Positions 1,508-61,422 of a DNA stretch of 64,000 nucleotides are shown here, piece after piece (the stretch's first letter is position 1; each line of letters begins with the position of its first letter). The notes under the pieces were generated by a model that was not told the origin of the DNA, did no database searches, and worked only from the letters and a program-made list of their open reading frames with translations. Origin of the DNA: a virus (taxonomy: Duplodnaviria; Heunggongvirae; Uroviricota; Caudoviricetes); the IMG/VR virus record IMGVR_UViG_3300036860_000563, positions 1-64,000 of that record; one strand, given 5' to 3'. The translations under genes were made by a program, and so were the position numbers.

Positions 1508-1966
1508 CTACGAAGATTCTACTACACGGGTCAGCGAGTGGATGAAGCCGATCGGGTCTCGCTCTTGGTAGGCGAGCGCGACCTGCGCGGCCGCCTTGTT
1601 CATGTGATCTCCCGGTTTGGGCCGGTACCAGCCCAGGCGACGCAGCACGTCGTGTGACCCCGCGCGCGACGCCTCGGCGGCGCCACGAAGCGCGAACCAC
1701 GCACGGTGTTCACACGCGAGCCAGCGCATCACACCGATCACCTCAAGTGCGTCGTTCTGAGCGGTGCGTGGTCGTCCGGGTGCCTGGGTGAAGCGCTCCA
1801 CGGTCAGGGTGGCACCGGGGTACGCGATGAGCCACGACCTCACCCAGCCACACACGTGAAGTGAGGCACCGCTGAGCGCCGTGAACGCTCGCGCCTCGGG
1901 TAGGTAGAGCGCCGCGGCGGTCACCAGACCAGGATCCACACCAACGTACGCGGGAGGGCCGGTCAC
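1508..1966 (-). CDS. RuvC-like Holliday junction resolvase
   Basis: VTGPPAYVGVDPGLVTAAALYL matches the RuvC N-terminal G(I/V)DPG motif. C-terminal DHMNKAAAQVALAY. GTG start. Confidence 0.65.
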   Translation of the reverse strand: MTGPPAYVGVDPGLVTAAALYLPEARAFTALSGASLHVCGWVRSWLIAYPGATLTVERFTQAPGRPRTAQNDALEVIGVMRWLACEHRAWFALRGAAEASRAGSHDVLRRLGWYRPKPGDHMNKAAAQVALAYQERDPIGFIHSLTRVVESS

Positions 1967-1970
1967 GTCA

Positions 1971-3881
1971 TCACACCAACGTCTCAGTCGTGGAGATGTG
2001 GGAAGTTGACTCGTCGAAGACGTACGGGAGCTTAGCACCCCACGACTCACCGCGTGACACGGACGCGGTGATCGGAACGTTGAGTAGCTGATCGTCGTTC
2101 ATGATCTTACGAAGAGTGTGAGCGACGTCAGCGACGTGCTCACCGGGTACGTCCAGCAGCACCTCGTCGTGCACAGGTGCGAACATCCACTCATCGAGAC
2201 CCGCGCTGGCGAGCTCCACGAGCTTCATCTTAAAGATCTCACCAGCGCCGCACTGGATGATGAAGTTGACGAGCGCGTACTCCTTGCCCTCGTCGGCGAT
2301 GAGCCACCGCTGGGTGAACGGTGAGCGCACCCCACGCACACCACTACCGCGCGCCGCGCTTAGTGCGGTGTTGATCACGTCGCTCTGAAACCGTTGAACA
2401 CCCGGGAACCGCTGGTTCCACACACCGCGAAACGCGCGTGCGTTCTCGAGCGATATTCCGGCGGTCTGTGCGAACTTCGGTACGCCGGCGCCATATAGAG
2501 TAGCGTACGTGGCGTTCTTCGTTACCTGTCGCCGTGGATCGCTCTTAGTGATCGTGTCGTCATCATAGATCAGGCGCGCGAGGTTGACGAAGAAGTCACC
2601 ACCGTCGGTGAACGCCTTGATCATCGTGTGTTCATCCGCGACGTGAGCGAGTAGGCGAGCCTCGATCTGATCGAAGTCACACATCACGAGTGACCCACCC
2701 GCGTGACGAGTTGTGATCATGTTACGCACCACGTCACCGGGACGACTCGTGCCGAACCGTGGCAGGTTCTGCACGTTGGGACTGTCCATCGACATACGTG
2801 ACGTCCGCGCACCGAGTGTGTTGATGGACGGGTGAAGCAGGTCGTCCGCGTCGGCCTCCTCGACGTAGAACCGCAGGTAGGTCGACGCCATCTTCTGCAC
2901 CTGCCGACGCTGCAGCACAGCGCGCGCGAGCGGGTGATCGATCCCGTCGAGAACGTCGGCGTCGAGTGACTTTGCGCCCGACTTCGTCGCCTTGGAGAAC
3001 GTGAACCCGGCGTCTTCGAGGATCTCAATGATCGCAGTACTGGAGCCAGGTTTCACACCGTACTCCCGCCGACACCACTCTTCGACGCGTTCACAGTAGT
3101 CCTCGAACTCACGCAGCTTCTGCGTGGCGAGTGCTCGATCGACGTGCACACCGTAGCGCTCCATGCGCTCGGTGACCCAGAGGACGGCGCGCTCCAGGTC
3201 ATACGCCTTTGGTGCCTCTCGCTGGGTTATCGGGTAGTGGTGCTCGAAGAGCCTATACGTCAGCACCGGGTCCAGGGCGGCGTACGCCCAGTACGGCTGG
3301 TAGTCCAGCGGAACCGTAGCCCACGTCCACTTCGTGCCCGCGAGCTCGGTCTGCAGACCGGCGGCGGCGGCGTCGACGTGTCGCGTCGCCTGGTTCTTCA
3401 GTGCCATCGACATGTGAGGTTCGTTGATCCGTGACAACACCATGGTGTCATGCACCCGGTGACGCGGTAAACACACACCAGCGCGGTCGAGGAACGCCAT
3501 GTCAAAGGTGCTGTTGTGTAAGATCCAGTCACCCTGCCACGAGCGCACGAGCGACTCCATGATGCCACTCCACCGGTCCCACGAGAACGCGAAGCCACGC
3601 GCACCGTCGCCGACCTGCACGAGACGAAGTGTGTCTCGTTGCTTATTCAACCCGGTCGTCTCGGTGTCCAGTCCCAGCGCGTTCACCGGACGACGCTCGC
3701 CCAGCCATGAGTGAAGGGTGATGACGTCCTCGAGTGAGTTGACGAGGTGAAGCTTAACGTCACCGAGTGTCACGAGTTCACAGCTTCTTCCTCTTCCTCT
3801 TCCTCTTCCTCTTCCTCTTCCTCTTCCTCTTCCCACAGTGCCACACTGTGTCCGGTCATAGCACTGTGGAATGAGTGCCAC
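1971..3881 (-). CDS. polA: DNA polymerase I (family A) with 3'-5' exonuclease domain
   Basis: Exo motif LGLDTETTGLN. Polymerase motif B KNATYATLYGAG and motif C APVHDEVLLDVP. N-terminus uncertain: GTG 3881 includes (GR)9 encoded by (CTCTTC)n; alternative GTG at 3773 (VTLGDVKLHL). Neither has a good RBS. Confidence 0.85.
   Translation of the reverse strand: MALIPQCYDRTQCGTVGRGRGRGRGRGRGRGRSCELVTLGDVKLHLVNSLEDVITLHSWLGERRPVNALGLDTETTGLNKQRDTLRLVQVGDGARGFAFSWDRWSGIMESLVRSWQGDWILHNSTFDMAFLDRAGVCLPRHRVHDTMVLSRINEPHMSMALKNQATRHVDAAAAGLQTELAGTKWTWATVPLDYQPYWAYAALDPVLTYRLFEHHYPITQREAPKAYDLERAVLWVTERMERYGVHVDRALATQKLREFEDYCERVEEWCRREYGVKPGSSTAIIEILEDAGFTFSKATKSGAKSLDADVLDGIDHPLARAVLQRRQVQKMASTYLRFYVEEADADDLLHPSINTLGARTSRMSMDSPNVQNLPRFGTSRPGDVVRNMITTRHAGGSLVMCDFDQIEARLLAHVADEHTMIKAFTDGGDFFVNLARLIYDDDTITKSDPRRQVTKNATYATLYGAGVPKFAQTAGISLENARAFRGVWNQRFPGVQRFQSDVINTALSAARGSGVRGVRSPFTQRWLIADEGKEYALVNFIIQCGAGEIFKMKLVELASAGLDEWMFAPVHDEVLLDVPGEHVADVAHTLRKIMNDDQLLNVPITASVSRGESWGAKLPYVFDESTSHISTTETLV
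3785..3833. repeat. (CTCTTC)n hexanucleotide microsatellite, about 8-9 units
   Basis: Seen directly. Translates as (GR)n in the polA frame and as poly-Glu in overlapping ORF 3770..4015. Confidence 0.9.
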
Positions 3882-3900
3882 TCAGCTCGTGCGAGTGGCA
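3874..3900 (-). other. perfect 9-bp inverted-repeat hairpin (GTGCCACTC / GAGTGGCAC) between dCMP deaminase and polA
   Basis: Seen directly. A second small hairpin, CACAGTG-CCA-CACTGTG, sits at 3833..3849. Confidence 0.3.
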
Positions 3901-4002
3901 CCGAGAACACTGTGGTGATTTGACAACTCTCACATCGACCACGATATCTCGTTAAGATTGACGACAACAGCGGCGACCATGGTGCGTTGCTTCTCGTCGC
4001 AG

Positions 4003-4476
4003 TCACGACACGCACGTAACCTCCAGCTCGCAGTTGGTGAGAAGTTCGTATGATCTCTCCGGGTTACGATGAGTGCCGCGCTCACGTCGACGTACGACGA
4101 CACGTCGTAGGCCCGAGTTGGCGATGACCTTAGCACACCCGAAGCAGACGTCACTCGTGACGTAGATCGTACCGCCCTCACGCGCCGATCGATCACAGAC
4201 TGACAACCCGTTGAGCTCAGCGTGTGATGATGGGCAGTCTGTGTAGTCCGAGTTGAGCTTCTCATCACGGTTAGTTAACGCTGCTCGCTGACACCACGCA
4301 CGACACGGTAGGTTACTGTGCGTGAAACCCCTGGGTGGGCCGTTGTAGCCCGTCGCGACGATGCGGTTACTCACGTTCACGATGACAGCACCCACCTGGT
4401 CGCGAACACAGAGACTACGCCGTGCGACGACGTCAGCGACGTTGAGCCACGTCTCGTCCCACGACGAGCGCGTCAC
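4003..4476 (-). CDS. dCMP deaminase (deoxycytidylate deaminase zinc-binding fold)
   Basis: SHAELNGL (HxE zinc ligand) and DVCFGCAKVI (CxxC zinc ligands). Extra LPCRAWC Cys pair. Confidence 0.75.
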   Translation of the reverse strand: MTRSSWDETWLNVADVVARRSLCVRDQVGAVIVNVSNRIVATGYNGPPRGFTHSNLPCRAWCQRAALTNRDEKLNSDYTDCPSSHAELNGLSVCDRSAREGGTIYVTSDVCFGCAKVIANSGLRRVVVRRRERGTHRNPERSYELLTNCELEVTCVS

Positions 4477-4733
4477 GATGAGTCTCCGTCATCACGCGGC
4501 GTAGTCTTTGCACGACGCGGGCACGACGGACACGAACACACGCCCTCGGCGCACAACACGTACCCGACTCCCTCCCGGAACAGGTCACTGATTGTAATGT
4601 CACGCCGGTTCGCGATGTCACGTAGCGTGGCGGCTAGGCCGAACGGAAGTCGCACCGAGTGCACCGACCCGAGCATCTTAGGATCTACGGGTGTAGGACT
4701 TGGATCGTGACCGGGTTCGGTGAGCTCAGTCAT
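4473..4733 (-). CDS. ribbon-helix-helix (CopG/Arc-like) small DNA-binding protein with Cys-rich tail
   Basis: VRLPFGLAATLRDIANRRDITISDLFREGVGYVL resembles an RHH strand plus two helices. C-terminal CSCPSCP. ATG 4733 lies 2 nt after the ThyA-like stop. ATGA overlap with the downstream gene. Confidence 0.4.
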   Translation of the reverse strand: MTELTEPGHDPSPTPVDPKMLGSVHSVRLPFGLAATLRDIANRRDITISDLFREGVGYVLCAEGVCSCPSCPRRAKTTPRDDGDSS

Positions 4734-4735
4734 GG

Positions 4736-5572
4736 CTATGATGAAAGTTCCGTGAGTGGTGTGAGCTGATCGCGGTACCAACACTCACTCATAGTCATCG
4801 TGGGGATGTCAGAGTAGGGTAACGTCCGGGCGCGCATCATGATCGAGTGAAAGTTGTCCTCCACGCTTCCGAGACCACGCGGCTGCCACTCGGGTGGTCC
4901 AACCGCCGGGCGTAGCCACTCGACTCTCTCCACGTCTGCCTCGTAAATGTGTGTTGACCACGTGGTGTGACGATACGGGCCGGGTGATACACCCAGCGCG
5001 CGCGCCGCCGTCTGCTGGAGCTGAGTGAACTGAAACCAGTCGTAGGGGGACCCGAGCCAGACGTCCTGTGAGCGCATGGTGGTGCGTAGGTGCAACTGAT
5101 CGTTCTTGAGCTCGAAGTGGAGCGCCACGGTGCACGGGTAGTCACGGTGCCCCGGTAGGTTGTCCAACCACGGGTCCCACAGTGTGATGACGGCCTGCCG
5201 TGTCGCTGGGTCAGCGCGTAGCTTGTGGAGTGCGGCGGGCACCTGCAACCGAACCCGGTCACCGTACGCCCCGTAGAACCGCTGGGTGTCGGGTTCGAGA
5301 AACCGCTGAAAGTTTGGCGACGCGGTGATGAGTAACCGTGGGTCGCTAAACCCGCCGATGAGCTGCACCGCCTCCGCCGCCGCCACACGTCGGTTGACGT
5401 CACGACAGACGCCCAGTGGGAGTGATCGGCTAACGTCGTACATGATGACGGTCAGCTCACCTGCGTCCAGCGTCGGCAGGCCTCGCGGCGCGCGTCGTTC
5501 CCCGTGCTTGATGACGTAGTTCACGACATCGGCGTAGCCGACCACACCGTTCTCGATCTCGATGGTACTCAC
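4736..5572 (-). CDS. ThyA-family enzyme (thymidylate synthase / dNMP (hydroxy)methylase homolog) with Asp at the pyrimidine-specificity position
   Basis: Aligns to E. coli ThyA. GERRAPRGLPTL ~ dRTGTGTL. DPATRQAVITLWDP ~ DPDSRRIIVSAWNV. YPCTVALHFEL ~ APCHAFFQFYV (catalytic Cys). MRSQDVWLGSPYDWFQF ~ QRSCDVFLGLPFNIASY, where the ThyA N177 / T4 dCMP hydroxymethylase D179 equivalent is Asp. The Cys-to-Arg spacing (20) is conserved. Confidence 0.7.
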   Translation of the reverse strand: MSTIEIENGVVGYADVVNYVIKHGERRAPRGLPTLDAGELTVIMYDVSRSLPLGVCRDVNRRVAAAEAVQLIGGFSDPRLLITASPNFQRFLEPDTQRFYGAYGDRVRLQVPAALHKLRADPATRQAVITLWDPWLDNLPGHRDYPCTVALHFELKNDQLHLRTTMRSQDVWLGSPYDWFQFTQLQQTAARALGVSPGPYRHTTWSTHIYEADVERVEWLRPAVGPPEWQPRGLGSVEDNFHSIMMRARTLPYSDIPTMTMSECWYRDQLTPLTELSS

Positions 5573-5705
5573 GATGATGAGTCTCGTCGGTGCATTTCAC
5601 GCTTATTCTCGTACTTAGCCATCAACCATAGTGAACCGAGCGTCATCATCACGACACAAACACACGTGACGGAGAATATCCAAGCGAACAGCTGCTCGAG
5701 ACCGG

Positions 5706-11600: not shown

Positions 11601-12122
11601 CTACGTACGGTGTGAAGATGAGGGTTGAACGATCGCCGTCGCACCCTCGTTCGTGAGAGCACGATGTACACGGTTGGCCTCATCGAGGTCGGTGTGGGTG
11701 AGCACGTCGACGGGCGCGGACTCGACGAACTCCTTCGCATCGCGAATGCCGAGGGCGAGTAGTCGACGAATCGTCCGGATGATGGGCAGCTTGTTGGGGC
11801 CAACGTCGACGAGCCGAACCGTGAACTCGGTGGGCTCATCTTCCACGCTCAACTCGCCGACGGCATCACCAACCGCATCACCAGGTGGTGACACGAGACG
11901 TGCCGGCTCGGCTGTGACGTCGAACGTCTCCGCGAACCGACGATGAAACTCGGTCAGCTCGACGAGAGTGAGGCCCCCGAACGCTTCGAGTAGGTCAGAG
12001 ACACGACTCTCACCACTCTCACCACTCTCACCACTCTCACCACTCTCACCACTCTCACCACTCTCACCACTCTCACCACTCTCACCGCTCTGCTCCACGG
12101 GTCTTTGCCTCCTCACAACCAC
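11601..12122 (-). CDS. ribosomal protein bL12 (L7/L12)-like protein with an inserted (ESG)9 repeat
   Basis: C-terminal domain EFTVRLVDVGPNKLPIIRTIRRLLALGIRDAKEFVESAPVDVLTHTDLDEANRVHRALTNEGATAIV matches the L7/L12 CTD pattern (EFDV.L...G.NK..VIK.VR..TGLGLKEAK.LVE.AP). N-terminal-domain-like SDLLEAFGGLTLVELTEF. The ESG repeat is encoded by (CACCACTCT)9. Confidence 0.65.
   Translation of the reverse strand: MVVRRQRPVEQSGESGESGESGESGESGESGESGESGESRVSDLLEAFGGLTLVELTEFHRRFAETFDVTAEPARLVSPPGDAVGDAVGELSVEDEPTEFTVRLVDVGPNKLPIIRTIRRLLALGIRDAKEFVESAPVDVLTHTDLDEANRVHRALTNEGATAIVQPSSSHRT
12005..12089. repeat. (CACCACTCT)n 9-nt tandem repeat, about 9 units
   Basis: Seen directly. In frame as (ESG)n within the bL12-like gene. 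Confidence 0.9.
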
Positions 12123-13768
12123 GGCCAGTGTGCGTCACGACCGGCCTCTAAGAGTGGGATCAACGTGAACGCCGCGTCGGTGAGGCCACCGAAGGTGTGA
12201 CGGTTGTGACTACCCGCCGGCGCGTGACCGCGCTCGTAGCCCGCGAGGTTCCACGTGTAGAGTGGCGTCGTCGTGGGAACGACGGCGCTCACCTCGACGT
12301 GAGTGGCGTCCGCGGCGGCCTGCTCGTCGGTGATGATGATGACGCGATCGTGACCAGCGTGGTGTTGACGCAGCGCCGCGGCGGTCGCGGTGCCACCACC
12401 GAGGAAGAAGCCGTCACTCGCCCAGCGGGAGAGTGTCGTGAGTAACGACTCACCGTCCCGGAGTGCGAACGTCTTCGTGTGCGCGCCGTGTGCGTCGCCC
12501 CACACTCGGGCGGCCGACGAGAACGACACGAGGTCGGCGCTCTTCGCGCGACCGGCGAGCGCCGCGCCAAAGATCACCGCGACGTCCCAGCGCTTAAGTG
12601 TGCTGTTGTGCGAGAACTGCTCGTCCATCGAGGACGACGTGTCCACCAGGATGAGCGTCCTGCCGGTGAGCCGAGGAACGTTCGCGAGACAGTAGTTGAG
12701 CGCGCGCTCGAGCGGGTACGCCCAGCGGAGGCTGGGTGCCGCGCGGTGCGCCGCGAGAAGCCGGAGGGGAAGCTGCCGTGACCGCGCGACCTCGATCGGG
12801 TCGGCGAGCCTCGCTGCCACGGTCTGTGCGACCGCGTCTCGGACGCCCGCCTCGTCGAGGTTGCGCAGGTTACGTAGTAGTGCCATGTACCCCATCGAGG
12901 GCGCGAGTGCCTCCCACAGTAGGTTCTTCGGTAGCCGGTCGCCGGCTAGCGAGAGCACGTTCTCCCACGTCATACCCGCCGCGGCCAACGTCTCTACGTC
13001 GAGTAGCCCTGAGATACTGCTCTCTGCGACCAGCGAGCGCAGCTCAGCGTTGCGACGAACCGTCGTCAGCAGCTTGGGAACGGCGTTGTCGTGGCCGTGC
13101 CGCCGGTCCAGGGCGTACTTGAACAGCTCACCTTGCCACGGTGCGGTCGGACGTGGGTGAGTCAGCTCGACGACGTCCCCGAACCGAAACGCGTGTGATG
13201 TGGTGTCGTACTTGAGCAGCGCGCGCTCGGTGTAGAGTCGCCGAACGGCGTCGGTGACGCCACGCTTAACCGGCTGGGGTAGGTTCCGACCGTAGGACAC
13301 GACGTAGTACGCCAGCAGCTCACCCGGCTCGTCGGCGCGCCGCAACACCGCGTCGACGAGCGCCCGCGCCAGTCCCCTGTCGTCGGAGAGGCCCGGTACC
13401 TCGTAGGCCGGTACGGACCCGAGGTCAGGACGCTCGCGGCGCGCTCGGATGAACTCGACGGCCCCGACGAGCGGCGCGGAGCGAAGGTCGGCGTCGGCGC
13501 GGAGCCAGCGGAGAAGCTGGAACACCCACACCGGGTCGGTGACCGCGACGGCACGCACCAGCTCACGAAACCGTGTGTCTCGCCGGGACGCTGACTCGTA
13601 GAACGCATCCTCACCCACGAGGTTTGACACGGCGAGCAGGAACAGCTCACTCTTCTCGTCACGGGCGTAGCCGGGTGCGCCCTCGTGTGTGAGACCGCCG
13701 GGTGTAGCCTCGGTGGTGACCGGGCTGGTCGTCGCCGGACGGACGCCGAGAACGTTGAACTTAGTCAT
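12113..13768 (-). CDS. rsr: Ro60/Rsr ortholog (TROVE domain + vWA with MIDAS)
   Basis: Blocks matching human Ro60: ALLRNL (identical to Ro60 LTALLRNLG); RTLILVDTSSSMDEQ ~ RFLLAVDVSASMNQ (DxSxS MIDAS); GGGTA ~ GGTD; RVIIITDEQ ~ VFIVFTDNE; GGLTDAAFTLI ~ CGFDTGALDVI. Confidence 0.7.
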   Translation of the reverse strand: MTKFNVLGVRPATTSPVTTEATPGGLTHEGAPGYARDEKSELFLLAVSNLVGEDAFYESASRRDTRFRELVRAVAVTDPVWVFQLLRWLRADADLRSAPLVGAVEFIRARRERPDLGSVPAYEVPGLSDDRGLARALVDAVLRRADEPGELLAYYVVSYGRNLPQPVKRGVTDAVRRLYTERALLKYDTTSHAFRFGDVVELTHPRPTAPWQGELFKYALDRRHGHDNAVPKLLTTVRRNAELRSLVAESSISGLLDVETLAAAGMTWENVLSLAGDRLPKNLLWEALAPSMGYMALLRNLRNLDEAGVRDAVAQTVAARLADPIEVARSRQLPLRLLAAHRAAPSLRWAYPLERALNYCLANVPRLTGRTLILVDTSSSMDEQFSHNSTLKRWDVAVIFGAALAGRAKSADLVSFSSAARVWGDAHGAHTKTFALRDGESLLTTLSRWASDGFFLGGGTATAAALRQHHAGHDRVIIITDEQAAADATHVEVSAVVPTTTPLYTWNLAGYERGHAPAGSHNRHTFGGLTDAAFTLIPLLEAGRDAHWPWL

Positions 13769-17068: not shown

Positions 17069-17087
17069 GTACAAACTGGTATAAATC

Positions 17088-17440
17088 CTGGCAATGATCT
17101 TGGCAGTTTCACCGTTGTTGATCTATATTGAAAGTGCCAAGGTCTCATATGGGATCATATCGTCTTGGCACTTTCACCTAGGATCTGGCAGTTTCAACGG
17201 CCCGAAAACTCCCAAACTGCCAAGAAAGTGCCAAGGCATCCTACATCATATTGATCTTCATTTAACCAGCTAGATCCTTTATACCAACTAAACTTAATCT
17301 TATTTTAAGTTATGATTGGCAGTTTGGCAGTTTCGCTAGGGTTGTTAGAGGTATAAGGAGGAGGAAATTGGGGATATTTATACCGATTTGTTCCCCACCC
17401 TTCCCTGGTGGTACTAAACTACTCTCAGAACTGCCAAAAT
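17088..17440. repeat. AT-rich iteron array: at least 9 copies of TTGGCA(G/C)TTTC in both orientations; putative replication origin
   Basis: Copies at about 17100, 17130 (rc), 17165, 17185, 17214 (rc), 17224 (rc), 17316, 17325, 17428 (rc). Local GC is far below the window average. Sits immediately downstream of the primase/helicase gene. Confidence 0.6.
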
Positions 17441-27062: not shown

Positions 27063-27434
<372 letters not shown>

Positions 27435-27634
27435 GTGAAGAACGTGAGTGACGAGATGAAGGTGCTCGTGGGGTTGGTGCTGATCGTCGTAGCGGCCGTG
27501 AGCCTGTGGTGGGTGTTCACACACGTGGCGGCCGGACCGGCGCTTCCACCCACCCCGCGCGTGACGTCATCGCAGTGATGACGTCGATAACGTTAATGAT
27601 GATCTTGTTTCTCTACGAGCAATTCACCTCTTCT

Positions 27635-27643
27635 TGGTAGAAT
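27635..27643 (+). promoter_or_regulatory. extended -10-like promoter element TGGTAGAAT
   Basis: TGn + TAGAAT, about 60 nt upstream of the NADAR gene. Shares GGTAGAATC with the element at 33218. Followed by a (GAGAAGAG)4 repeat. Confidence 0.3.
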
Positions 27644-27700
27644 CGTAGCAGAGCGAGTGAAGAGGAGAAGAGGAGAAGAGGAGAAGAGGTGAGTGATGTG

Positions 27701-37830: not shown

Positions 37831-37852
37831 GATCTCACACACGAGGTGTGAA

Positions 37853-37886
37853 GTCACAGCACCGTGTTGTTGCACGGTGTTGTGAC
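37853..37886 (+). terminator. 14-bp near-perfect hairpin GTCACAGCACCGTG-TTGTTG-CACGGTGTTGTGAC after gene 37489..37830
   Basis: Seen directly. Immediately followed by a TGATATAAT element. Confidence 0.4.
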
Positions 37887-37889
37887 TTA

Positions 37890-37898
37890 TGATATAAT
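37890..37898 (+). promoter_or_regulatory. extended -10 promoter element TGATATAAT
   Basis: TGnTATAAT consensus, upstream of gene 37936. Confidence 0.4.
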
Positions 37899-37935
37899 AG
37901 AACTAGAAGAGATCGAGAGATAAGGAGTGATCAAC

Positions 37936-41829: not shown

Positions 41830-44541
41830 GTGGCAGATCGACGACGTGATGTCGCTCACCTCATCGTGCCACACGGTGAGCTTTCACACGGTGCGAACGG
41901 TCACACACTTATCACAGCCACGGTCGGTAGTAGCGTCTCACCGATCAACGCGGCCGCCCAGCGGTTGGTTCCGATCGACACGTACCGTGCCCAGTACACC
42001 CAGCCGTGGCAGGACGAGGCCTGGGAATTCTACGCGTCGCTTGGAGAACTTAACCAGGGCGTTGAGTGGTTTGGTGAGGCGGTCTCACGTGTGCGACTAC
42101 TCGCCGCCGAGGTCACCCCCGGCGGGGATGAACCGAGGGTGCTGGACACCGGCCCGGCCGTCGACCTCGTCCAGCGGCTCTGCGGTGGCACGGACGGGCA
42201 GTCTCAGCTGCTCCGATCACTGGGTGTTCAGCTCTCGATACCGGGAGAGTGTTACTTCGTCGGCCGCGACGTGGGGCAGCTGAGCTCACTCGACACCACG
42301 TCGTTGGACGCCGAGCCCGACGAGGACGGTCGTGTCTGGACCGTTCAGCCGACGAACACGGTGCGGCAATCACAGCGTGGCGTCTGGCGGACGCTAGGTC
42401 GTCGCAATCGTACCGATACCCGGCGCGGCTGGGACCTACAGGTCGATGAGGCGGTGTGGGTACCACTGCCCGCCGAGACCCTCATCACTCGCGTCTGGGA
42501 CCGTGATGAGCGCTCTCCGTGGCTGGCCGCGTCACCCGCGCGGGCGGCGCTACCCATCATGCGTGAGATCGACATGTACAACCGGTACGTCATCGCGACG
42601 CTCATCTCACGTGTGGCGTCCAATGGCATCTTGCTGATCCCGGACGAGGTGACGCTACCCGTCAACCCCAACTACGAGACGGCCGCCGACCCGTTCATGG
42701 CCGAGCTGATCGACGTCATGCGCGCCGCGATCAAGAACCCCGGTTCACCGGCGTCCGCGGCACCGGTGCCACTCCGAGTGCGCTCCGAGTACATCGAACG
42801 GTTCCGACACCTCACGTTCGCGACGCCGTTTGACGACAAGATCTTTCAGGCACGCGCCGACGCGATCAAGCGACTCGCCACGACGCTCAACCTGCCGACC
42901 GAGGTTCTAACCGGTCTGGGTTCCGTAAATCATTGGTGCGGAGATGACTCCACGCAAGCATACGTGCGTGATCGTGGCTGGGTGAGCCAGCGAGAACTTA
43001 ACGTCGGTGACGTGATTCTTACCCTCAACCACGAGACCGGGCTGTCCGAGTGGCAACCCGTGCTTGACATCTACCGAGCTGACGTTACCGACGAACAGAT
43101 GCTGGCACTTACTAGCCGGTTTCACTCATCGGTGTCGACGATGGGTCACCGCTGGCCCGTCGTCACGTCGACGGGCTACGACTGGCGCACATCACAGACG
43201 CTCGAGGCGAGTGATCGACTCGTGCTCGCCGTTCCTCACACCGACCTACCGACGACGATGAAGTACAGCGATGAGTTCGTCGAGCTCGTCGCGTGGATGA
43301 CGACGGATGGCTCGATTCGTCGGTGGCAACCTAAGTATAAAGGATCACTCCAGGCCGCCGTCCACCAGTCACATCGTGCTCATCCTGGGCGAGTGGCGGA
43401 GATCAGGCGAGTGCTCACCGCACTGTACGGACCGGCGAGCGTGCACCCGCACGGGTGTGAACGAGCCACCGAGCCTCGCTGGCGTGAGCACCGGTACGAG
43501 TCGTACGGCATGACGACGTGGGTGCTCAACCGAGTCGCTGCCGAGTCGCTCACCGAGGTGATGAATGTTCCTGAGAAGATCGTTACGCGTGACTTTATCT
43601 ACTCACTGACGCGGGCGCAGCTCGACCTGTTCATCAACTCGTACGCGGCCGGTGATGGACGTCAGGGGCCTACCGGCAGCGTGATAAGCTCGCAGCGAGA
43701 CGCCCGCCGACTCGACGCACTCGAGCTCGCGGCGACGCTCGCCGGTTACGTGACGTCGCGTGGGGTCGGTACCGACGGTGGTTTTAAGACCGGGCCGATC
43801 ACCACTCAACGCGTTGTGCACCCGGACAACCAGAACGTACGTGGTGGGCGGTGTAGCGTGGGCGTTGGGAGCGTGACGTCGTACACGGGTGTTGTGTGGT
43901 GTCCCACGACGAAGAACGGTACGTGGTTCGCTCAGCACAACGGTAAGACGTTCTTCACCGGCAACAGCGCGTGGGCACTCAACGAGGACGGCATCAAGAT
44001 TCACATCTCACCCAAGGTTGAGATCATGACGCGGTGCCTCACCGTCGGCTACCTGCACCCGATGCTGCGAGCGCTGGGTGAGCCGACGACCACCGCGGCG
44101 GGTAACCGGATCATCATGTGGTACGACACGTCCGAGCTCACCCAGCGACCCGACCGGTCCCCGCTGGCCGTCCAGCTTCGGGAGATGCTGGTCATCAACG
44201 ACACCGCCGCACGGCGTGAGTCGGGTTTTGACGAGGCGGACGCTCCGACGGATGATGAGCTCGAGAAGATGATCCTCGAGAAGCTCGCCGTTAACCCACA
44301 GACGGCGACGGCTGCGCTGAAGGAGCTCACCGGGCTCAACATCGCCGAGCCGCCGCCCACGGTCCCGGTGGTCGGCACCCCGTCACAGCCCAGCGGCCCA
44401 GCTGGCGACGCGGGTGACGGAACCTCCGTGGAGTCGGCACCTCCGGTGTCGACCACCGGACCACCTAAGACGCGCGACGCACCGCCGCCGGCACCCGACG
44501 AGGGAGCCAACGCGGTCACGACCGGTAGCCGTGGTAACTAG
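41830..44541 (+). CDS. portal protein interrupted by an intein
   Basis: Lies immediately upstream of the MuF-like gene. Portal-like N-terminal region (YTQPWQDEAWEFYASLGEL). Hint + LAGLIDADG insertion. Pro/Gly/Ala-rich C-terminal tail. Confidence 0.6.
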   Translation: MADRRRDVAHLIVPHGELSHGANGHTLITATVGSSVSPINAAAQRLVPIDTYRAQYTQPWQDEAWEFYASLGELNQGVEWFGEAVSRVRLLAAEVTPGGDEPRVLDTGPAVDLVQRLCGGTDGQSQLLRSLGVQLSIPGECYFVGRDVGQLSSLDTTSLDAEPDEDGRVWTVQPTNTVRQSQRGVWRTLGRRNRTDTRRGWDLQVDEAVWVPLPAETLITRVWDRDERSPWLAASPARAALPIMREIDMYNRYVIATLISRVASNGILLIPDEVTLPVNPNYETAADPFMAELIDVMRAAIKNPGSPASAAPVPLRVRSEYIERFRHLTFATPFDDKIFQARADAIKRLATTLNLPTEVLTGLGSVNHWCGDDSTQAYVRDRGWVSQRELNVGDVILTLNHETGLSEWQPVLDIYRADVTDEQMLALTSRFHSSVSTMGHRWPVVTSTGYDWRTSQTLEASDRLVLAVPHTDLPTTMKYSDEFVELVAWMTTDGSIRRWQPKYKGSLQAAVHQSHRAHPGRVAEIRRVLTALYGPASVHPHGCERATEPRWREHRYESYGMTTWVLNRVAAESLTEVMNVPEKIVTRDFIYSLTRAQLDLFINSYAAGDGRQGPTGSVISSQRDARRLDALELAATLAGYVTSRGVGTDGGFKTGPITTQRVVHPDNQNVRGGRCSVGVGSVTSYTGVVWCPTTKNGTWFAQHNGKTFFTGNSAWALNEDGIKIHISPKVEIMTRCLTVGYLHPMLRALGEPTTTAAGNRIIMWYDTSELTQRPDRSPLAVQLREMLVINDTAARRESGFDEADAPTDDELEKMILEKLAVNPQTATAALKELTGLNIAEPPPTVPVVGTPSQPSGPAGDAGDGTSVESAPPVSTTGPPKTRDAPPPAPDEGANAVTTGSRGN
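42937..43965 (+). mobile_element. intein (Hint domain + LAGLIDADG homing endonuclease) inside the portal gene
   Basis: N-terminal Cys block CGDDSTQAYV...NVGDVILTLNHETG. LAGLIDADG-like motifs LVAWMTTDGSI and LFINSYAAGDGRQG. C-terminal block VVWCPTTKNGTWFAQHNGKTFFTGN|S. The C-terminal junction is ambiguous: HN at 43936..43941 is followed by Gly. Confidence 0.6.
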
Positions 44542-44543
44542 CC

Positions 44544-47500
44544 GTGGTACGCGTCCCGAGGTGGTCAGAGGATGAACTGGAGCGCCGCTCCGGCCAGCTA
44601 GCGGCGCTCATCCGGCGTGCCTGGCGCGCCGTCGCGCGCGTCGTCGCCGGCGACATCGGCCGGCGGAGACCGATGAGCGACGTCACACCTGACCTCATGC
44701 ACCACAATCGCGTCGCGTTCGCGTGGCACGTCGAGCTCGAGGATCAGGTTCTCGCGTACGTCGCGCGAACGTACGAGGACGCCGCGGCCGATGTGCTCAT
44801 CCCACTGGGTGATGCGGTCGCAAACCTAGCGCCACTGGGACCGGAACCCGCGCACCGACACCTCGCACTCGCGCGCAACCGACTGCGCGACGTCGCCGAT
44901 GACGTCTGGGTGATCGTGCGAGAGCAGCTCGTCCTGGGCAGCCAGGCGGGTGAGTCGACCCAGCAGCTCGCGCTCCGCGTTCAGAACGTCACGGGCATCT
45001 CCGACGCCCGGGCGTTCACGATCGCGCGGACGGAGGTGCACGCGGCCCACGAGGCCGGCGCGCACGACCAGGCGCTCTGGGTCGACCCAGACGGTAAGAA
45101 GGAGTGGCTCGCCACCGCGGACGACCGCACGCGTGAGTCACACCGCGTGGCAAGTGGGCAGACCGTCGCGCTGACGAAGTCGTTCAGCGTGGGAGAGGGC
45201 ACACTTCGCTACCCGGGCGACCCACTGGGCGACCCCGGTGAGACGATCAACTGCCGGTGCAGCACCGCGTTTCACATATCACTTGATATGATAGGCCCTG
45301 TGAGTGATCAGAGTGATCAGAGTGACCAGAGTGATCAGAGTGACGTTCACACCGTGACGGCCGGCGCGTGGAAGCCGCAGCAGCACCCGCGCGGGGCGGA
45401 CGGTAAGTTCATCGAGGCCGGCGCGATCAAGAACTTCTTGAGCGCGAAGAAGCCAACGTTTGATCACGCAGCGTCCGCTATAGCCGAGCTCAACCAGCAG
45501 AAGTGGAGCAAGCTTACCGACGAGCAGCGTCAACGCTTTGCGAGTGTCGTCGCCGCCTGGCCCGACGACAACATACTCAAAAAGAAGATCACTAAGCTCT
45601 CGCAGGTACCGGAGCCGGCGACGTCAAGCTCGCCACCAGGTGACTTCTCTCATCTTAAGAAGGTCGGCGCACAGCGGGGCTCCAACCCCGGTGGGATCTT
45701 CGAGGGGCCGGACGGGCAGCGCTACTACGTTAAGAAGGCGAAGACGCCGCAGCACGCGGCCAACGAGCGAGCGGCCGCGCAGCTGTACGAACTCGCCGGG
45801 ATCGACGTGCCTCAAGTCACACAGGGTGAGGGCGCACCGGGGCTCGGTGCTGGGTTGCAGACGCGCACGAAGCTCGTACCAGGCGCGCAGACCGATCTTA
45901 AGAAGAAGCTGCACGACCCGGCCTACGTAGCCGTGCTGCGCGAGGGTTTCGTCGTGGACGCGTGGCTCGCCAACTGGGACGTGGCGGGTCTGACGTACGA
46001 CAACGTCGTCACCGATGAGTACGGTGACCCGTGGCGGATCGACGTCGGGGGCGCGCTACTCTACCGTGCGATGGGCGCGCCGAAGGGTGTGGCGTTCGGT
46101 GATGAGGTGACCGAGCTCGACACGCTTCGTGATCCGGCGAAGAACCCGCAGGCGGCGTCCATCTTCGCGGGTATGACCGACGCCGAGCTGCGCGAGTCCG
46201 CGAAGCGCGTCGTTTCGATCACACCAGAGCAGATCGACCAAGTGATCACACAGGCGGGTTTACCGGCGTCCGTGGCGGAGACGCTCAAGAAGCGCCGCGA
46301 GTACATCATGAAGATGTACCCACCGATCTCCTGGGTCTCACCGGACGAGGTGCCCGCGGCGACCGAGCCTCACACGCCGGTCCCGGCGAAGCTGAAGAAG
46401 CTCACACCCTCCACGAAGAAGGTTGTACCTGCGACAATCTACAAGTCGCACGACGTGGGTGACGTCGTCGCGATCGACGAGCACAGCTCGATGCGGATCC
46501 GCTGGACGAGCGCGGGTTACACGCTCGACGTCAGCGATGACGATGGGGCCACCTGGACCCTAAAGACGAAGCTCACGAAGAGTCAGGCGTACCAGTCACT
46601 CAAGAGTAACACGATGTGGCGAGAACCGACTCTCGACGTCGTCGCTGGTCCGGAGGTAACGCCACCGGCGCCAACACCGGTGAAACCGCCTGTGACGACG
46701 AAGTTGGTGCCGAAACCAGAGTCGAAACCAGAGTCGAAACCGAAACCGAAACCGAAACCAGAGCAGCTCAGCGATGGCACCAACTACGAATCGGATGACG
46801 TACCGAACTGGCAGGACGTCATCGATCCAGATGTTCTTAACGCGCTGTCACCGGGCACGGTCATCGCCGTCTCGACCGACGGCAACTACCGACTCGTGAA
46901 GGCGCCGGGCGGTAACCTCATACTTGACATGCAAAAGCTTAGTGACGCTGGGTGGCTGCCGTGGGGAGGTATCTACACTCCTAACTATGATGACGGTGAC
47001 GAGCTCTTCGCCGAAGAACTCTCGCACTACGCGTCCGCGTGGGTGAAACCTAACTCACCACTAGGCCAACAGCTGTTAGATAAGAGTGACAAATTACCGA
47101 CGTTACCCGCACCGGTGGAAGACTTTCATTACTGGGTTGAGAAGTTGGTGCCACCATCACCCCCACCGGTTGAGCTCGCCGGTGTGTCCGGCACCAACAT
47201 CACACTTCACGAGTACAAGGACCTAGTTAACGTCGCGCTGAGCTCACCGGGCACGACCGTCGCGAAGACACCGGTGGGTGATGTACTACGGTCATCGAGT
47301 AGCGGGCACCTCATCTGGTACCACGCCGGTGACGAGCCCACCTCCGAGCAGTTGAACAAGCTCAAAGCGATTCAGTTGATGCGCAGTCCTACCGCTGGCT
47401 GGGTGATCGACGCTCAACTACTCGCGCAATCGTCTCACCCAAGTGTAGTTGACCTGGACTATGAACCGGATGACACACCCAACTGGGAAGAGATTCAGCA

Positions 47501-59191: not shown

Positions 59192-61411
59192 ATGACGACC
59201 GGACTAACCGTCGATAACATCATTCAAAGCAAAGTAGGCAGCTTCGAGTCGACCAGCGGTACGGCAACGCTGGACGCCGGTACGACAGCCGGCAACACCG
59301 TGTGCATCATCGCAGCGATTCGCGGTGATGGTCCCGATACTGGGAACTCGTGGACCATCGCGTTGCCCACCGGGTTCACCCAGGCAGAGGGTCAAGGGGG
59401 TACGTTCCAGAACTACGGCGCGATCTACGCGTTCATCAAGCCTAGTGCGAGCGCGGATGAGACGGCTTGGACCCTGGCGGTTACGGGTAGTGGTGCGCAG
59501 CTCGTCGAGTGGGTCGCGTTTGAGATGACCAACATCGACTGCGACTGGACCGACAAGATCTACTTGCATGCCATCAACACCGGTGCCATCTCGGCTGCCG
59601 CCACGCGATCGACGGGTAGCACCAGCGTGTCGGAGACAATGAGCGGGCTGGCCGTCGCAGCGTTCTGGGCAGTGAGCCCTGACACCACTGTGCCAACGTT
59701 CACTAACTACACCAACGACTTCTTTGAGGTGGCAAGCACGTCAGCGAGCAACTCACCGCGAGCGTGTGCGCTGTCCGTCGTCGCGAAGCAGCAGCGAGTC
59801 CTGCAAACGGTGGAGTGTACCGCAACGATGTCGCCGGACGCTATCACGACAGCGTTCGTGCTCGTGTTTACCGGACTGGATTCTCAACACGCTACGAACG
59901 TGAACGCGTGCTTTGGTGCGGAAGTCGGTACGGCCCAGTCAATCACCGCAGGTGGCGGTGGCGGACTCTCCAGCGGAACACCGATCTGGGACGGCGTCGC
60001 TGGCTCGCCGGCCGTCGTGACGAACAGCCCACGAAGCGGTAACTACTGCCTGGAGTTGTCGTCCGTTGCGTCTGCGGAGAACCTGACGTGGCTGCGAAGT
60101 GATCTGCCGGTGGGTAACCTTGGTGTCGCGGCCGCGCCGGTGCCGGTCGCGGTGGAGCGGTTCCACGTCTACTTCCCGACGGCGCTACCGGTGGTGGACG
60201 TAGACCTGGCGTCCGTAGAAGTCGGGTCACTGGCCAACGGCCTGGTGATCCGGTTCGTAGCGGCCAGCTCGAAGATCGGGGTGAAGATCGGCAGCGGTAC
60301 AGAGGTGCTCTCCGACGCTGTGGTGGTAGCGAACAAGTGGATCGGGATCGACTACTTCTACGATCCTCGAACAACGACGCACACCTGTGCATGGCAGGTT
60401 GACTACGACGCGACCCCCGGTGACGCGACCGAACCTGTGGCGCAATCACCGGCCAGCGCGTCTGGCATGACCGCCGGAAGCGTTACGGTGATTCGGAAGG
60501 GTTGGACAGGTACGACCATTACCGCGACCGTTCGCTACGACGACATCGTCTTTACCCGATTCCGCAAGGCCTACCCCATCGGCGACGTGCGGATCGTACC
60601 ACTGAAGGTCGACCCTGCGGGTACACCCGCCGTGAAGAGTGACCTGGGTGGGGCTGGTACGGAGTCCAACTTCAAGGTGTTCTCCAACAACGGTACCATG
60701 GCGACGTGGAGCGCGACCGGCACCCGTACCGCACTGGATGACATCCCGCCAACGATCGGCGGCAGCTCCGACGGTCTCGCGCAGGTCGCCGTATCTATGA
60801 CGGACTACGTCGAAGTACCCATGGAGACGTACGCACTAGCACCCAACTTCGTGGCGGTAGGTGGACGCTGGTACTGGTGGGGCTGGGCCGCGAGCGCGAA
60901 CCCGGCGAACATTCGGTTCAAGGCCGGCGACGGTGTTACCGACTTCTTTAGCGTTGGCTCTGGTACCGACAACGGCTTCGACGACACGAGCCAGCAGTGT
61001 GTTGCGTGCATGCACAACGCGACGAGCAACCAGAACGTAGCTTACCAACTGACGCAGGCCAAGCTCGACGCTCTCGTCGCCACATTCGGCCGGTCAGGTG
61101 ACGCCAACCCGGACTGCGGTGTTCACGCCGTTCTCTTCGAGTTGGTTCTCAAGCCCGCAGTGGTCGTGGGCGTACTCGAGTCCGAGGGTGGTGCCTTCAA
61201 GGTGTACAGCCGGATGGATGGACTGTCGGGCGCAGTCGTAAGCTACCTGGTCACCACACCGGCAGGTGTGCGTGGTGCGACCTTCTACTGGACGATCAAC
61301 GGTGTCGACGGCAGTCAGTACGTTGGGCCCAACACTACGTGGGAGAAGAACGTAGGCGCGGTCGACCTCAGTGCGGTGACGTACGTCGCACTAGCGTCGG
61401 ATCCAACGTAG
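59192..61411 (+). CDS. large tail / receptor-binding-like structural protein
   Basis: 739 aa, Gly/Thr/Ala-rich. Confidence 0.45.
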   Translation: MTTGLTVDNIIQSKVGSFESTSGTATLDAGTTAGNTVCIIAAIRGDGPDTGNSWTIALPTGFTQAEGQGGTFQNYGAIYAFIKPSASADETAWTLAVTGSGAQLVEWVAFEMTNIDCDWTDKIYLHAINTGAISAAATRSTGSTSVSETMSGLAVAAFWAVSPDTTVPTFTNYTNDFFEVASTSASNSPRACALSVVAKQQRVLQTVECTATMSPDAITTAFVLVFTGLDSQHATNVNACFGAEVGTAQSITAGGGGGLSSGTPIWDGVAGSPAVVTNSPRSGNYCLELSSVASAENLTWLRSDLPVGNLGVAAAPVPVAVERFHVYFPTALPVVDVDLASVEVGSLANGLVIRFVAASSKIGVKIGSGTEVLSDAVVVANKWIGIDYFYDPRTTTHTCAWQVDYDATPGDATEPVAQSPASASGMTAGSVTVIRKGWTGTTITATVRYDDIVFTRFRKAYPIGDVRIVPLKVDPAGTPAVKSDLGGAGTESNFKVFSNNGTMATWSATGTRTALDDIPPTIGGSSDGLAQVAVSMTDYVEVPMETYALAPNFVAVGGRWYWWGWAASANPANIRFKAGDGVTDFFSVGSGTDNGFDDTSQQCVACMHNATSNQNVAYQLTQAKLDALVATFGRSGDANPDCGVHAVLFELVLKPAVVVGVLESEGGAFKVYSRMDGLSGAVVSYLVTTPAGVRGATFYWTINGVDGSQYVGPNTTWEKNVGAVDLSAVTYVALASDPT

Positions 61412-61422
61412 GAGTACGTCCA

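Follow-up and report, generated by a model that had tools for sequence, protein, structure and literature searches.

A perfect hexanucleotide microsatellite upstream of the DNA polymerase I gene of a phage: a possible Shine–Dalgarno-like leader tract

Results

The spacer between the dCMP deaminase gene and the gene of a family A DNA polymerase I (polA) in the phage record IMGVR_UViG_3300036860_000563 contains a perfect hexanucleotide microsatellite (Table 1). The window that we analyzed is the whole stretch of 64,000 nt, positions 1 to 64,000 of that record. The microsatellite stands well above chance expectation. Judging from the start codon that polA shares with its homologues, the repeat lies outside the polA coding sequence. 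The reading that we prefer, to which we give about an even chance, is that of a slippage-expanded Shine–Dalgarno (SD)-like leader tract for polA.

Table 1. Features at the polA locus and a second purine repeat in the window.
Feature	Position	Strand	Basis or remark
DNA polymerase I, family A (3'-5' exonuclease and polymerase domains), 600 aa	1971..3773	-	start GTG 3773..3771; Pfam and homologue N-termini
ORF81, 81 aa from GTG 4015 (78 aa from GTG 4006), end Glu16-AVNS	3770..4015	-	ORF list; coding status doubtful
Lineage-specific spacer, 229 bp, dCMP deaminase stop to polA start	3774..4002	-	missing in closest relatives
Unbroken purine run, 51 nt, repeat included	3784..3834	-	end 10 nt 5' of polA start codon
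Hexanucleotide microsatellite (GGAAGA)8, equal to (TCTTCC)8 on the plus strand	3786..3833	-	TRF and direct sequence reading
RNA/DNA hairpin 2, CCACAGUGCUAU.../...GUGGCACUGUGG	3831..3871	-	folding and inverted repeats I2/I9
RNA/DNA hairpin 1, GUGCCACUC N9 GAGUGGCAC, perfect 9-bp palindrome core	3874..3902	-	folding and inverted repeat I1
dCMP deaminase, upstream operon gene	4003..4476	-	Pfam dCMP_cyt_deam_1 1.7e-15; gene order common to relatives
Purine repeat (GAAGAGGA)3.9, about 4 copies	27659..27689		outside any CDS; unambiguous 5' leader

Sequence and register of the repeat

TRF returned the tract with a period of 6, 8.0 copies, 100% matches and a score of 96. The 12-mer GAAGAGGAAGAG, with at most one mismatch, was expected 0.14 times in the window and found eight times; seven of the eight occurrences overlapped one another within the tract. 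The preliminary description had read the repeat as (CTCTTC)9. The microsatellite itself is real, but the copy number is eight perfect units (48 nt), and the CTCTTC register holds just seven full units (3791..3832). The two predicted peptides were likewise miscounted: in the polA-frame ORF from GTG 3881, the tract encodes (GR)8 at residues 17–32 rather than (GR)9, and the overlapping ORF, said to end in 17 Glu, has Glu16 followed by AVNS. That the tract is open in two frames is true yet trivial, as the unit is stop-free in all six (GR, EE and KR on the minus strand; SS, LP and FL on the plus strand).

The purine run that includes the repeat is the longest among the eight runs of at least 13 nt in the window. 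Both assemblies that resolve the tract, namely the window and the independent contig L022, hold eight units, and the L022 tract is identical; the Logan contig L021 terminates within the repeat. Because the unit is 6 nt long, a change in copy number preserves the reading frame.

The polA start codon

The polymerase matched the Pfam models DNA_pol_A (2e-59) and DNA_pol_A_exo1 (2e-12), and from GTG 3773 the protein begins MTLGDVKLHLVNS. In the relatives examined, polA starts 0–6 codons before the motif L-D/G-D-V-x-L-x-L-V, which is the position of GTG 3773. The annotated starts in the cultured phages DSL-LC01, Kurnik and GodonK agree with this codon, and the JGI gene call P0003 (600 aa) is 100% identical to the protein that it would yield. 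In a search of 5.8 billion proteins, the best 120 homologues were 574–633 aa long, apart from a few of ~930–970 aa with lower query coverage, and none of the 120 suggested a GR-type N-terminal extension. With GTG 3773 as the homologous start, the repeat is 12 nt upstream of the gene. Its earlier placement at the 5' end of the polymerase gene is therefore valid for the longest ORF only.

Translation from GTG 3881 or GTG 3836, in which the repeat would extend the polymerase N-terminus by (Gly-Arg)8, is highly improbable. The longest ORF in the polA frame, from GTG 3881, does read MALIPQCYDRTQCGTV(GR)8SCELV..., and the repeat unit keeps its frame. However, the extension is absent in the relatives examined and hardly compatible with the prevailing homologue length. 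Neither GTG 3881 nor GTG 3836 is preceded by an SD or a purine-rich motif, and both lie inside hairpin stems. Moreover, two stops interrupt the polA frame further upstream in the spacer, the codon score is negative, and gene callers chose the 600-aa protein. The GR-repeat N-terminus is an artefact that arises when the longest ORF is chosen, and the suggestion that repeat number tunes the N-terminal length of the polymerase was not borne out by the start positions of the relatives.

The spacer and its relatives

The deaminase stop and the polA start overlap or adjoin in L175, whose polA is 67% identical to the one described here, in L001-L003/L023, and in phages DSL-LC01 and GodonK. By this comparison of gene junctions, the spacer is an insertion acquired in this phage lineage. 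Other relatives (Kurnik, L005/L006, L008/L010 and L046) carry genuine small genes at the deaminase/polA junction. Neither the fetched loci nor the remainder of the window showed any similarity to the spacer. We also considered a MITE-like insertion via a 13-nt inverted repeat (3747-3759/3950-3962), but this pairing is probably due to chance: the arms are 85% complementary, one of them lies in conserved polA codons, and no further copies were found.

The source phage is uncultured and of the actinobacterial type. None of 50,697 phage records matched 1900..5600 by Megablast, so a close cultured relative is lacking for a comparison of repeat length. Scans with polA of IMG/VR, JGI metagenomes and GTDB genomes found nothing closer than 63–69% amino-acid identity, and the search of 5.8 billion proteins returned the identical JGI protein followed by matches of at most 67–69%. 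Exact-pattern scans of viral and genome contigs for the repeat with its flank and for the 9-N9-9 palindrome gave no matches.

Hairpins and signals in the spacer

Two perfect hairpins had been described beside the repeat; both are real, with coordinates shifted by 1 nt. The inverted repeat CACAGTG/CACTGTG (3834-3840/3844-3850) forms 7 bp with a 3-nt loop, and GTGCCACTC/GAGTGGCAC (3875-3883/3893-3901) forms 9 bp with a 9-nt loop. Both sit within two larger, adjoining RNA hairpins on the minus strand, and the 3' arm of hairpin 2 reaches 3 nt into the repeat. The 100-nt hairpin segment folded at -44 kcal/mol (z = -3.56), and the segment 3821..3900 ranked third in structure among 12,784 80-nt segments. 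By comparison of coordinates, two of the other top-structured segments (61411..61490 and 17081..17160) start right past the ends of long ORFs.

A scan of the minus strand from 3500 to 4300 for intrinsic terminators found none; a purine tract, not a U-run, follows the hairpins. No sigma-70-type promoter was detected on the minus strand of the spacer, and no -35/-10 pair flanks the tract. The TGGTAGAAT-like -10 motif was not over-represented. Rfam covariance models gave no match at E <= 1 on either strand of 3600..4200.

The tract might instead act as DNA, either as a polypurine/polypyrimidine element adjacent to replication genes (an element associated with an origin, say, or a primer site that forms an R-loop and resists RNase H) or, together with the inverted repeats, as protein-binding sites of an operator. 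We consider this very unlikely. It would suit the 51-bp pure purine/pyrimidine template, which gives an all-purine transcript, and the position between nucleotide-metabolism and replication genes. It would also suit the four CACAGTG/CACTGTG and three GTGGCAC/GTGCCAC heptamers within 85 bp, which include the perfect 9-N9-9 palindrome. Nevertheless, the unit as read from the sequence has no mirror symmetry, which disfavours canonical H-DNA. The recurrence of the motif in the window does not exceed chance (eight CCACAGTG vs 4.07 expected), and the element is absent from relatives, both in the scans for its flank and palindrome and in the fetched loci.

A candidate ribosome-binding leader

In the preferred reading, the sense strand of the spacer would present two stable hairpins, then the unpaired all-purine tract and, 10 nt later, the polA GTG. 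Relatives use purine-rich ribosome-binding motifs of the GAGGAAGAG type; here, an ordinary motif of this kind would have grown by replication slippage. Each GGAAGA unit contains a GAGG/AGAGGA SD-like core, and the tract could serve ribosomes as a landing and binding site in multiple registers. The polymerase would be translated independently, the ancestral stop-start coupling to the dCMP deaminase having been broken by the insertion, and the open Glu frame that spans the spacer would be there by accident. If the repeat number changed, the landing pad would lengthen or shorten and the hairpins would move relative to the start, with no effect on any protein. We infer both the slippage origin and the ribosome-binding function of the tract. 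A role in the leader had been offered before as an alternative to the N-terminal one; it is compatible with our findings, and it is the part of that proposal that we retain.

Three of the eight purine runs of at least 13 nt end 8–11 nt before the start codon of an ORF of at least 150 aa, compared with 8.6% of random positions; the 10-nt spacing at polA is the same as that at the 334-aa gene at 28742. Where polA is uncoupled in relatives, its ribosome-binding site has the same motif (AAAGAGAGGAAGAG-TTG in L028 and GAGAGAGGAAAGC-GTG in L046). The last GAGG core ends 16 nt before GTG 3773, which is long for an SD. For pairing, we used the anti-SD tail GAUCACCUCCUUUCU, which we take to be that of actinobacterial 16S rRNA and which may differ from the host's. 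Against this assumed tail, each 14-nt register of the tract gave -8.8 kcal/mol, a moderate affinity given a mean of -3.9 (SD 2.7) and a 1% quantile of -11.7 kcal/mol in the window.

A second purine repeat, (GAAGAGGA)3.9, lies immediately 5' of the start of the NADAR gene (ATG 27701). Its period of 8 is not divisible by 3, which precludes a coding role. Like the polA tract, it iterates an SD-like purine unit, ends just before a gene start and has a hairpin on its 5' side. It differs in having fewer copies, an extended -10-like TGGTAGAAT upstream and a much stronger anti-SD pairing (-15.7 kcal/mol, with the same assumed tail).

Several observations argue against the leader reading. ORF81 is open from end to end, a period of 6 is tolerated by coding sequence, similar tracts in IMG/VR lie mostly in a Glu frame, relatives have small genes at this junction, and the spacer has no detected promoter or canonical terminator.

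ORF81 and its poly-Glu tail

The main rival to the leader reading holds that ORF81 (78–81 aa, or possibly 29 aa from ATG 3858) is translated and that the repeat is its C-terminal Glu16 run. We think of this as a serious possibility, albeit one that we would not favour. ORF81 could be a genuine small ORFan protein with an acidic tail. The more likely version is that of a "bridging" ORF, which would carry ribosomes from the dCMP deaminase through the hairpins to the SD-poor polA GTG, where termination-reinitiation at GTGA would restore the ancestral translational coupling.

The architecture of the junction is consistent with such a role. The frame is open over the entire spacer (81 codons), and period 6 preserves it. 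A GGAGG lies 4 nt before GTG 4015 (-11.5 kcal/mol, assumed anti-SD tail), and GTG 4006 overlaps the deaminase TGA. The TGA of ORF81 in turn overlaps the polA GTG as GTGA; GTGA overlaps at both ends of the ORF match the coupling style of the operon, in which two further junctions have both a GTGA overlap and a weak SD (-3.3 and -6.6 kcal/mol). ORF81 was also called as a gene on two independent contigs, L021 and L022. Nonetheless, the probability of a chance open frame in the spacer is 0.12 for the ORF81 frame and 0.32 for any frame, and the openness of ORF81 together with the SD-like site near its GTG could be due to chance. Of the 107 GGAGG sites in the window, the majority lack a candidate start codon 3–11 nt downstream. 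In addition, the two near-perfect hairpins fall within the ORF.

Hexanucleotide SSRs in mycobacteriophages reportedly show a strong bias towards coding regions (PMC6426759). In IMG/VR, 67 of the 85 tracts of (GGAAGA)>=5 lay in long ORFs in the Glu frame, which makes (GAA GAG)n the commonest context. The same genome also encodes an (SGE)10 tract and an ORF that ends in ~24 Asp from (GAT)22. ORF81 differs from the carriers of such viral coding repeats in its shortness, with 65 codons beside the repeat, in its non-coding-like composition and in that no homologues were found.

The 60 non-repeat codons of ORF81 scored -0.183 per codon, in line with a mean of -0.199 ± 0.133 for open dinucleotide shuffles. 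None of the 110 windows of 60 codons in 12 called neighbouring genes (mean 0.23, SD 0.14) scored as low, and the likelihood ratio was ~70:1 toward non-coding-like composition. GC by codon position was.49/.61/.56 in ORF81 vs.66/.49/.77 in the genes; an excess at position 2 over position 3 was seen in no other called gene. A bridging ORF needs no adapted codon usage, so composition is no argument against that version. No homologues of ORF81 were found among 5.8 billion proteins, and tblastn of the fetched loci matched identical contigs only. A single-sequence AlphaFold model had a pLDDT of 54.7, with moderate confidence for the poly-Glu helix alone, and carries little weight.

Runs of consecutive acidic residues can cause stochastic abortion of translation in bacteria by intrinsic ribosome destabilisation (PMC9718836; bioRxiv 10.1101/2021.02.02.429294). 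ORF81, or its 29-aa version, might be a regulatory uORF whose Glu16 nascent chain triggers this destabilisation and gates the ribosomes that reach the TGA/polA GTG, which we rate as unlikely. The sequence of such a peptide would be unselected, and this would account for the non-coding-like composition. If true, polymerase synthesis would be tuned by repeat number and by ribosome stabilisers such as Mg2+. We rejected a programmed frameshift on the repeat from the Glu frame to the polA frame, for want of a slippery X XXY YYZ motif.

Discussion

A ribosome standby site is an unpaired leader segment beside structured RNA. The polA tract resembles such sites and purine-rich SD leaders in being an unpaired all-purine tract with GAGG cores, with hairpins on its 5' side and the start codon just 3' of it. 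It also shares its motif and the 8–11 nt spacing of its purine run with other gene starts in this genome and with the polA ribosome-binding sites of L028 and L046. It differs in its eight perfect iterations and in the distance of the nearest GAGG core from the start.

SSR contingency loci are known from the phase-variable genes of Haemophilus and Neisseria. Like them, the polA repeat sits at a gene's 5' end as a perfect microsatellite, is expected to be prone to slippage and could alter expression. Unlike them, it has a unit of 6 nt that cannot shift the frame, lies outside any -35/-10 promoter spacer, has the same eight copies in both resolving assemblies, and accompanies a phage replication gene rather than a surface or restriction gene.

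Since the repeat is likely to be either an expanded ribosome-binding tract or the poly-Glu tail of a doubtful ORF, we regard it as a curiosity and not as a new mechanism. Current concepts would change only with a demonstration of repeat-length variation or of uORF-dependent control. The practical outcome is a correction of the annotation: the polymerase is an ordinary 600-aa protein that starts at GTG 3773. The locus also illustrates how an ancestrally translation-coupled junction, here from dCMP deaminase to polA, can be re-formed following an insertion. Should the leader reading prove correct, two natural SD-like motifs of this genome, at polA and at NADAR, would have been amplified into microsatellites, and the initiation of phage translation would be under an evolvable, slippage-driven control.

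The repeat and the start of polA

The microsatellite is genuine and perfect: (TCTTCC)8 on the + strand (TRF: period 6, 8.0 copies, 100% matches, score 96; also read directly) and (GGAAGA)8 on the − strand, which carries all nearby genes. It is the core of an uninterrupted 51-nt purine run ending 10 nt before GTG 3773, and its 12-mer occurs there in seven overlapping registers vs 0.14 expected by chance in the window. The nine copies of the preliminary description were one unit too many; the polA-frame ORF from GTG 3881 gives (GR)8 instead of (GR)9, and the overlapping ORF terminates in 16 Glu + AVNS, not 17 Glu. The repeat is indeed open in both frames, which is uninformative because none of the unit's six frames contains a stop.

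The repeat had also been placed at the 5′ end of polA, as a potential N-terminal extension, but it lies outside the gene, 12 nt upstream, within a structured spacer specific to this lineage. Read on the sense strand, it is an unpaired stretch of purines directly before the start codon. In every related locus with the N-terminus present, the alignment starts at residues 1–6 of the GTG 3773 protein, and the relatives' start codon is found 0–6 codons before a conserved L-D/G-D-V-x-L-x-L-V motif. The window polA begins M-T-L-G-D-V-K-L-H-L-V-N; among the closest relatives, L032 begins M-T-L-T-D-V-K-L, its start overlapping the upstream gene as GTGA, and L175 begins M-S-D-A-S-G-L-D-S-V-K-L-H-L-V-N. 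The annotated CDS starts of three cultured phages (DSL-LC01, Kurnik, GodonK) fall within 0–6 residues of the same position. The best 120 homologues have 574–633 aa, except for a few of ~930–970 aa with less query coverage, and the JGI pipeline calls a 600-aa polymerase. No purine-rich motif was found upstream of GTG 3881 or GTG 3836, both of which lie inside hairpin stems. Since relatives, annotations, homologue lengths and the JGI call point to GTG 3773, the (GR)8 N-terminus is a longest-ORF artefact, and its presence on the polymerase is very unlikely, close to negligible.

Coordinates of the features in the window
Feature	Position	Strand	Remark
Thymidylate-synthase-like gene	4736..5572	−	first in local order
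86-aa ORF		−	between thymidylate-synthase-like gene and dCMP deaminase
dCMP deaminase	4003..4476	−	followed by spacer
Spacer	3774..4002		229 bp
ORF81	3770..4015	−	81-aa Glu-frame open frame
Stem-loops	3874..3902; 3831..3871	−	adjacent
Inverted-motif cluster	3834..3915
Purine run	3834..3784	−	51 nt
Hexamer repeat	3786..3833		8 units
polA (family A)		−	after spacer
143-aa ORF, then 79-aa ORF		−	after polA
SNF2 helicase		−	last in local order
bL12 homologue	11601..12122	−
9-nt tandem repeat	12002..12091		in bL12 homologue
TROVE/vWA protein	12113..13768	−	551 aa
123-aa ORF	27063..27434	+
(GAT)22.7	27351..27418		in 123-aa ORF
9-bp hairpin	~27563..27585		perfect; located by eye
TGGTAGAAT	27635..27643		extended −10-like motif
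(GAAGAGGA)3.9	27659..27689	+	NADAR gene leader
1,834-codon frame	44538..50039	+	repeats at 45302, 46711, 49024
Structured 80-nt windows	61411..61490; 37831..37910; 17081..17160	+

Genomic neighbourhood and origin of the spacer

The window is phage-like, with roughly 62% GC. Its local gene order recurs in the annotations of Actinomycetia phage DSL-LC01, Micrococcus phage Kurnik and Gordonia phage GodonK, the polymerases of which are only 32–38% identical to that of the window. Two other assemblies match at 100% identity. L021 (Logan SRR11742948) stops within the microsatellite (locus end 5506, window 3804), presumably because the repeat broke the assembly, and L022 (JGI 3300036861) resolves the tract; the window and L022, the only two resolving assemblies, both have 8 units. 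Beyond these, polA identity was at most 63–69% (aa) in IMG/VR, JGI metagenomes, GTDB genomes and 5.8 billion proteins.

In L175 (polA 67% identical to the window's), L001–L003/L023 (63%), DSL-LC01 and GodonK, no gap separates the deaminase gene from polA, stop and start overlapping or abutting (e.g. ATGA, TAATG), whereas the window has the spacer at this junction. Kurnik, L005/L006, L008/L010 and L046 carry different, protein-like small ORFs there, which makes the junction an insertion hot spot. The spacer resembles no fetched locus and no other part of the window, and neither its flank nor its palindrome occurs in IMG/VR or GTDB. Judged from these comparisons, the spacer is an insertion.

Structure of the spacer

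The two flanking hairpins described previously are both present, with positions off by one base; in the sense RNA they belong to two larger, adjacent stem-loops, the second of which takes in the repeat's first 3 nt. The 100-nt segment folds with −44 kcal/mol (z = −3.56), and the hairpins supply the third most structured of 12,784 80-nt windows. The hairpins lack the U-run of an intrinsic terminator, and no Rfam family matches the element. The inverted-motif cluster is dense in CACAGTG/CACTGTG (four times) and GTGGCAC/GTGCCAC (three times), including a perfect 9-N9-9 palindrome. It also holds three copies of CCACAGUG, each able to pair with the single GCACUGUGG adjoining the repeat; mutually exclusive, attenuator-like or operator-like hairpins are therefore possible. 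A DNA-level role of the tract, as an R-loop/origin or an operator, is unsupported and distinctly improbable.

The other most structured windows are candidate terminators: those at 61411 and 17081 begin just past long-ORF ends by our coordinate comparison, and those at 37831 and 17081 are GC-poor (0.44 and 0.39). This points to strong hairpins as markers of operon boundaries in the genome.

Coding potential of ORF81

ORF81 is open across the whole spacer, and its translation would turn the repeat into Glu16, more plausibly in a coupling ORF than in a functional protein. GTG 4015 is preceded at 4 nt by GGAGG (−11.5 kcal/mol to an anti-SD). A second candidate start, GTG 4006, overlaps the deaminase TGA, and the ORF81 TGA overlaps the polA GTG; two other operon junctions also have a GTGA overlap, there with weak SDs. 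Gene callers report ORF81 on both L021 and L022. Among viral (GGAAGA)n tracts, 67 of 85 lie within a long ORF in the poly-Glu frame, and the strong bias to coding regions reported for mycobacteriophage hexanucleotide SSRs (PMC6426759) also counts for translation.

The composition argues against it. With a codon log-odds model built from the long genes of the window, the 60 non-repeat codons scored −0.183 bits per codon, equal to the mean of open dinucleotide shuffles of the segment (−0.199 ± 0.133) and below all 110 60-codon windows from 12 neighbouring called genes (mean 0.23, SD 0.14, minimum −0.125), a likelihood ratio of ~70:1 for non-coding-like composition. GC by codon position is.49/.61/.56, whereas GC3 exceeds GC2 in every other called gene. 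The chance of this frame being open is 0.12, and of any frame 0.32. Of the 107 GGAGG sites in the window, the majority lack a candidate start codon 3–11 nt downstream. Protein search and the fetched loci yielded no homologues, the AlphaFold model is uninformative (pLDDT 54.7), and the frame contains the highly structured hairpin segment. Translation of a non-adapted "bridging" ORF would still be compatible with such composition, and we consider translation of ORF81 the main rival of the leader reading, a tentative possibility somewhat on the doubtful side. That a poly-Glu uORF gates polA reinitiation via intrinsic ribosome destabilisation, a process found in the literature, is unlikely.

Purine tracts as putative ribosome-binding leaders

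Three of the eight purine runs of at least 13 nt in the window end 8–11 nt before the start of an ORF of at least 150 aa (random positions, 8.6%), namely the NADAR gene, a 334-aa gene and polA; two further runs precede short ORFs. The clearest analogue of the polA tract is (GAAGAGGA)3.9, another purine-rich tandem repeat, which precedes the NADAR-domain gene within its 5′ leader; with a period of 8, not a multiple of 3, the repeat cannot be coding. It ends 8–11 nt before the GTG/ATG of that gene, the Pfam domain of which begins at ATG 27701, and a hairpin and TGGTAGAAT lie upstream. Its predicted pairing to an assumed actinobacterial anti-SD is −15.7 kcal/mol, in the top 0.1% of the window. 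The uncoupled polA genes of two relatives have the same motif as RBS (L028, AAAGAGAGGAAGAG-TTG; L046, GAGAGAGGAAAGC-GTG). Against the 16S tail, assumed actinobacterial, every register of the polA repeat reaches a pairing energy of −8.8 kcal/mol, ~1.8 SD below the window mean yet weaker than the 1% quantile (−11.7). The main weakness of an RBS reading is the distance of 16 nt between the last GAGG core and the polA start.

Other repeats in the window

Multi-copy microsatellites seem unusually abundant in this genome for a phage. (GAT)22.7 would give the 123-aa ORF, which has no Pfam match, a C-terminus of ~24 Asp then ERE; with the genome at 62% GC, the use of GAT, the GC-poor codon for Asp, would fit a recent expansion by slippage. 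Ribosomal protein bL12 (L7/L12) has a homologue encoded by this phage, which matches Pfam Ribosomal_L12 (3.7e-14) and the N-terminal dimerisation domain; its N-terminal (Ser-Gly-Glu)x10 tract comes from a perfect 9-nt tandem repeat. Virus-encoded bL12 is already known (PMC6375957); repeat expansion on it may not be. Immediately upstream, and overlapping, is a gene with TROVE (Ro60-like) and vWA domains, an unusual phage pairing of an RNA-quality-control-like with a ribosomal gene. In the 1,834-codon frame, tandem repeats occur at three separate places, all of them in frame (periods 9, 12/6 and 3/9).

Implications

The polA-upstream element putatively works like a Shine-Dalgarno/standby-type leader. 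It differs from a contingency locus in that its unit length is divisible by 3, its position is outside a promoter spacer, and both resolved assemblies have the same unit number. Slippage of an SD-type motif would have produced the tract; ancestral deaminase–polA coupling would have been interrupted, and the extended ribosome-binding or landing tract would give polA independent initiation. We favour this reading, at about even odds. The element is best classed with the ordinary simple-sequence repeats of phage leaders or ORFan regions; it is mildly unusual in having an SD-like repeat unit and in sharing its genome with a second case of this kind.
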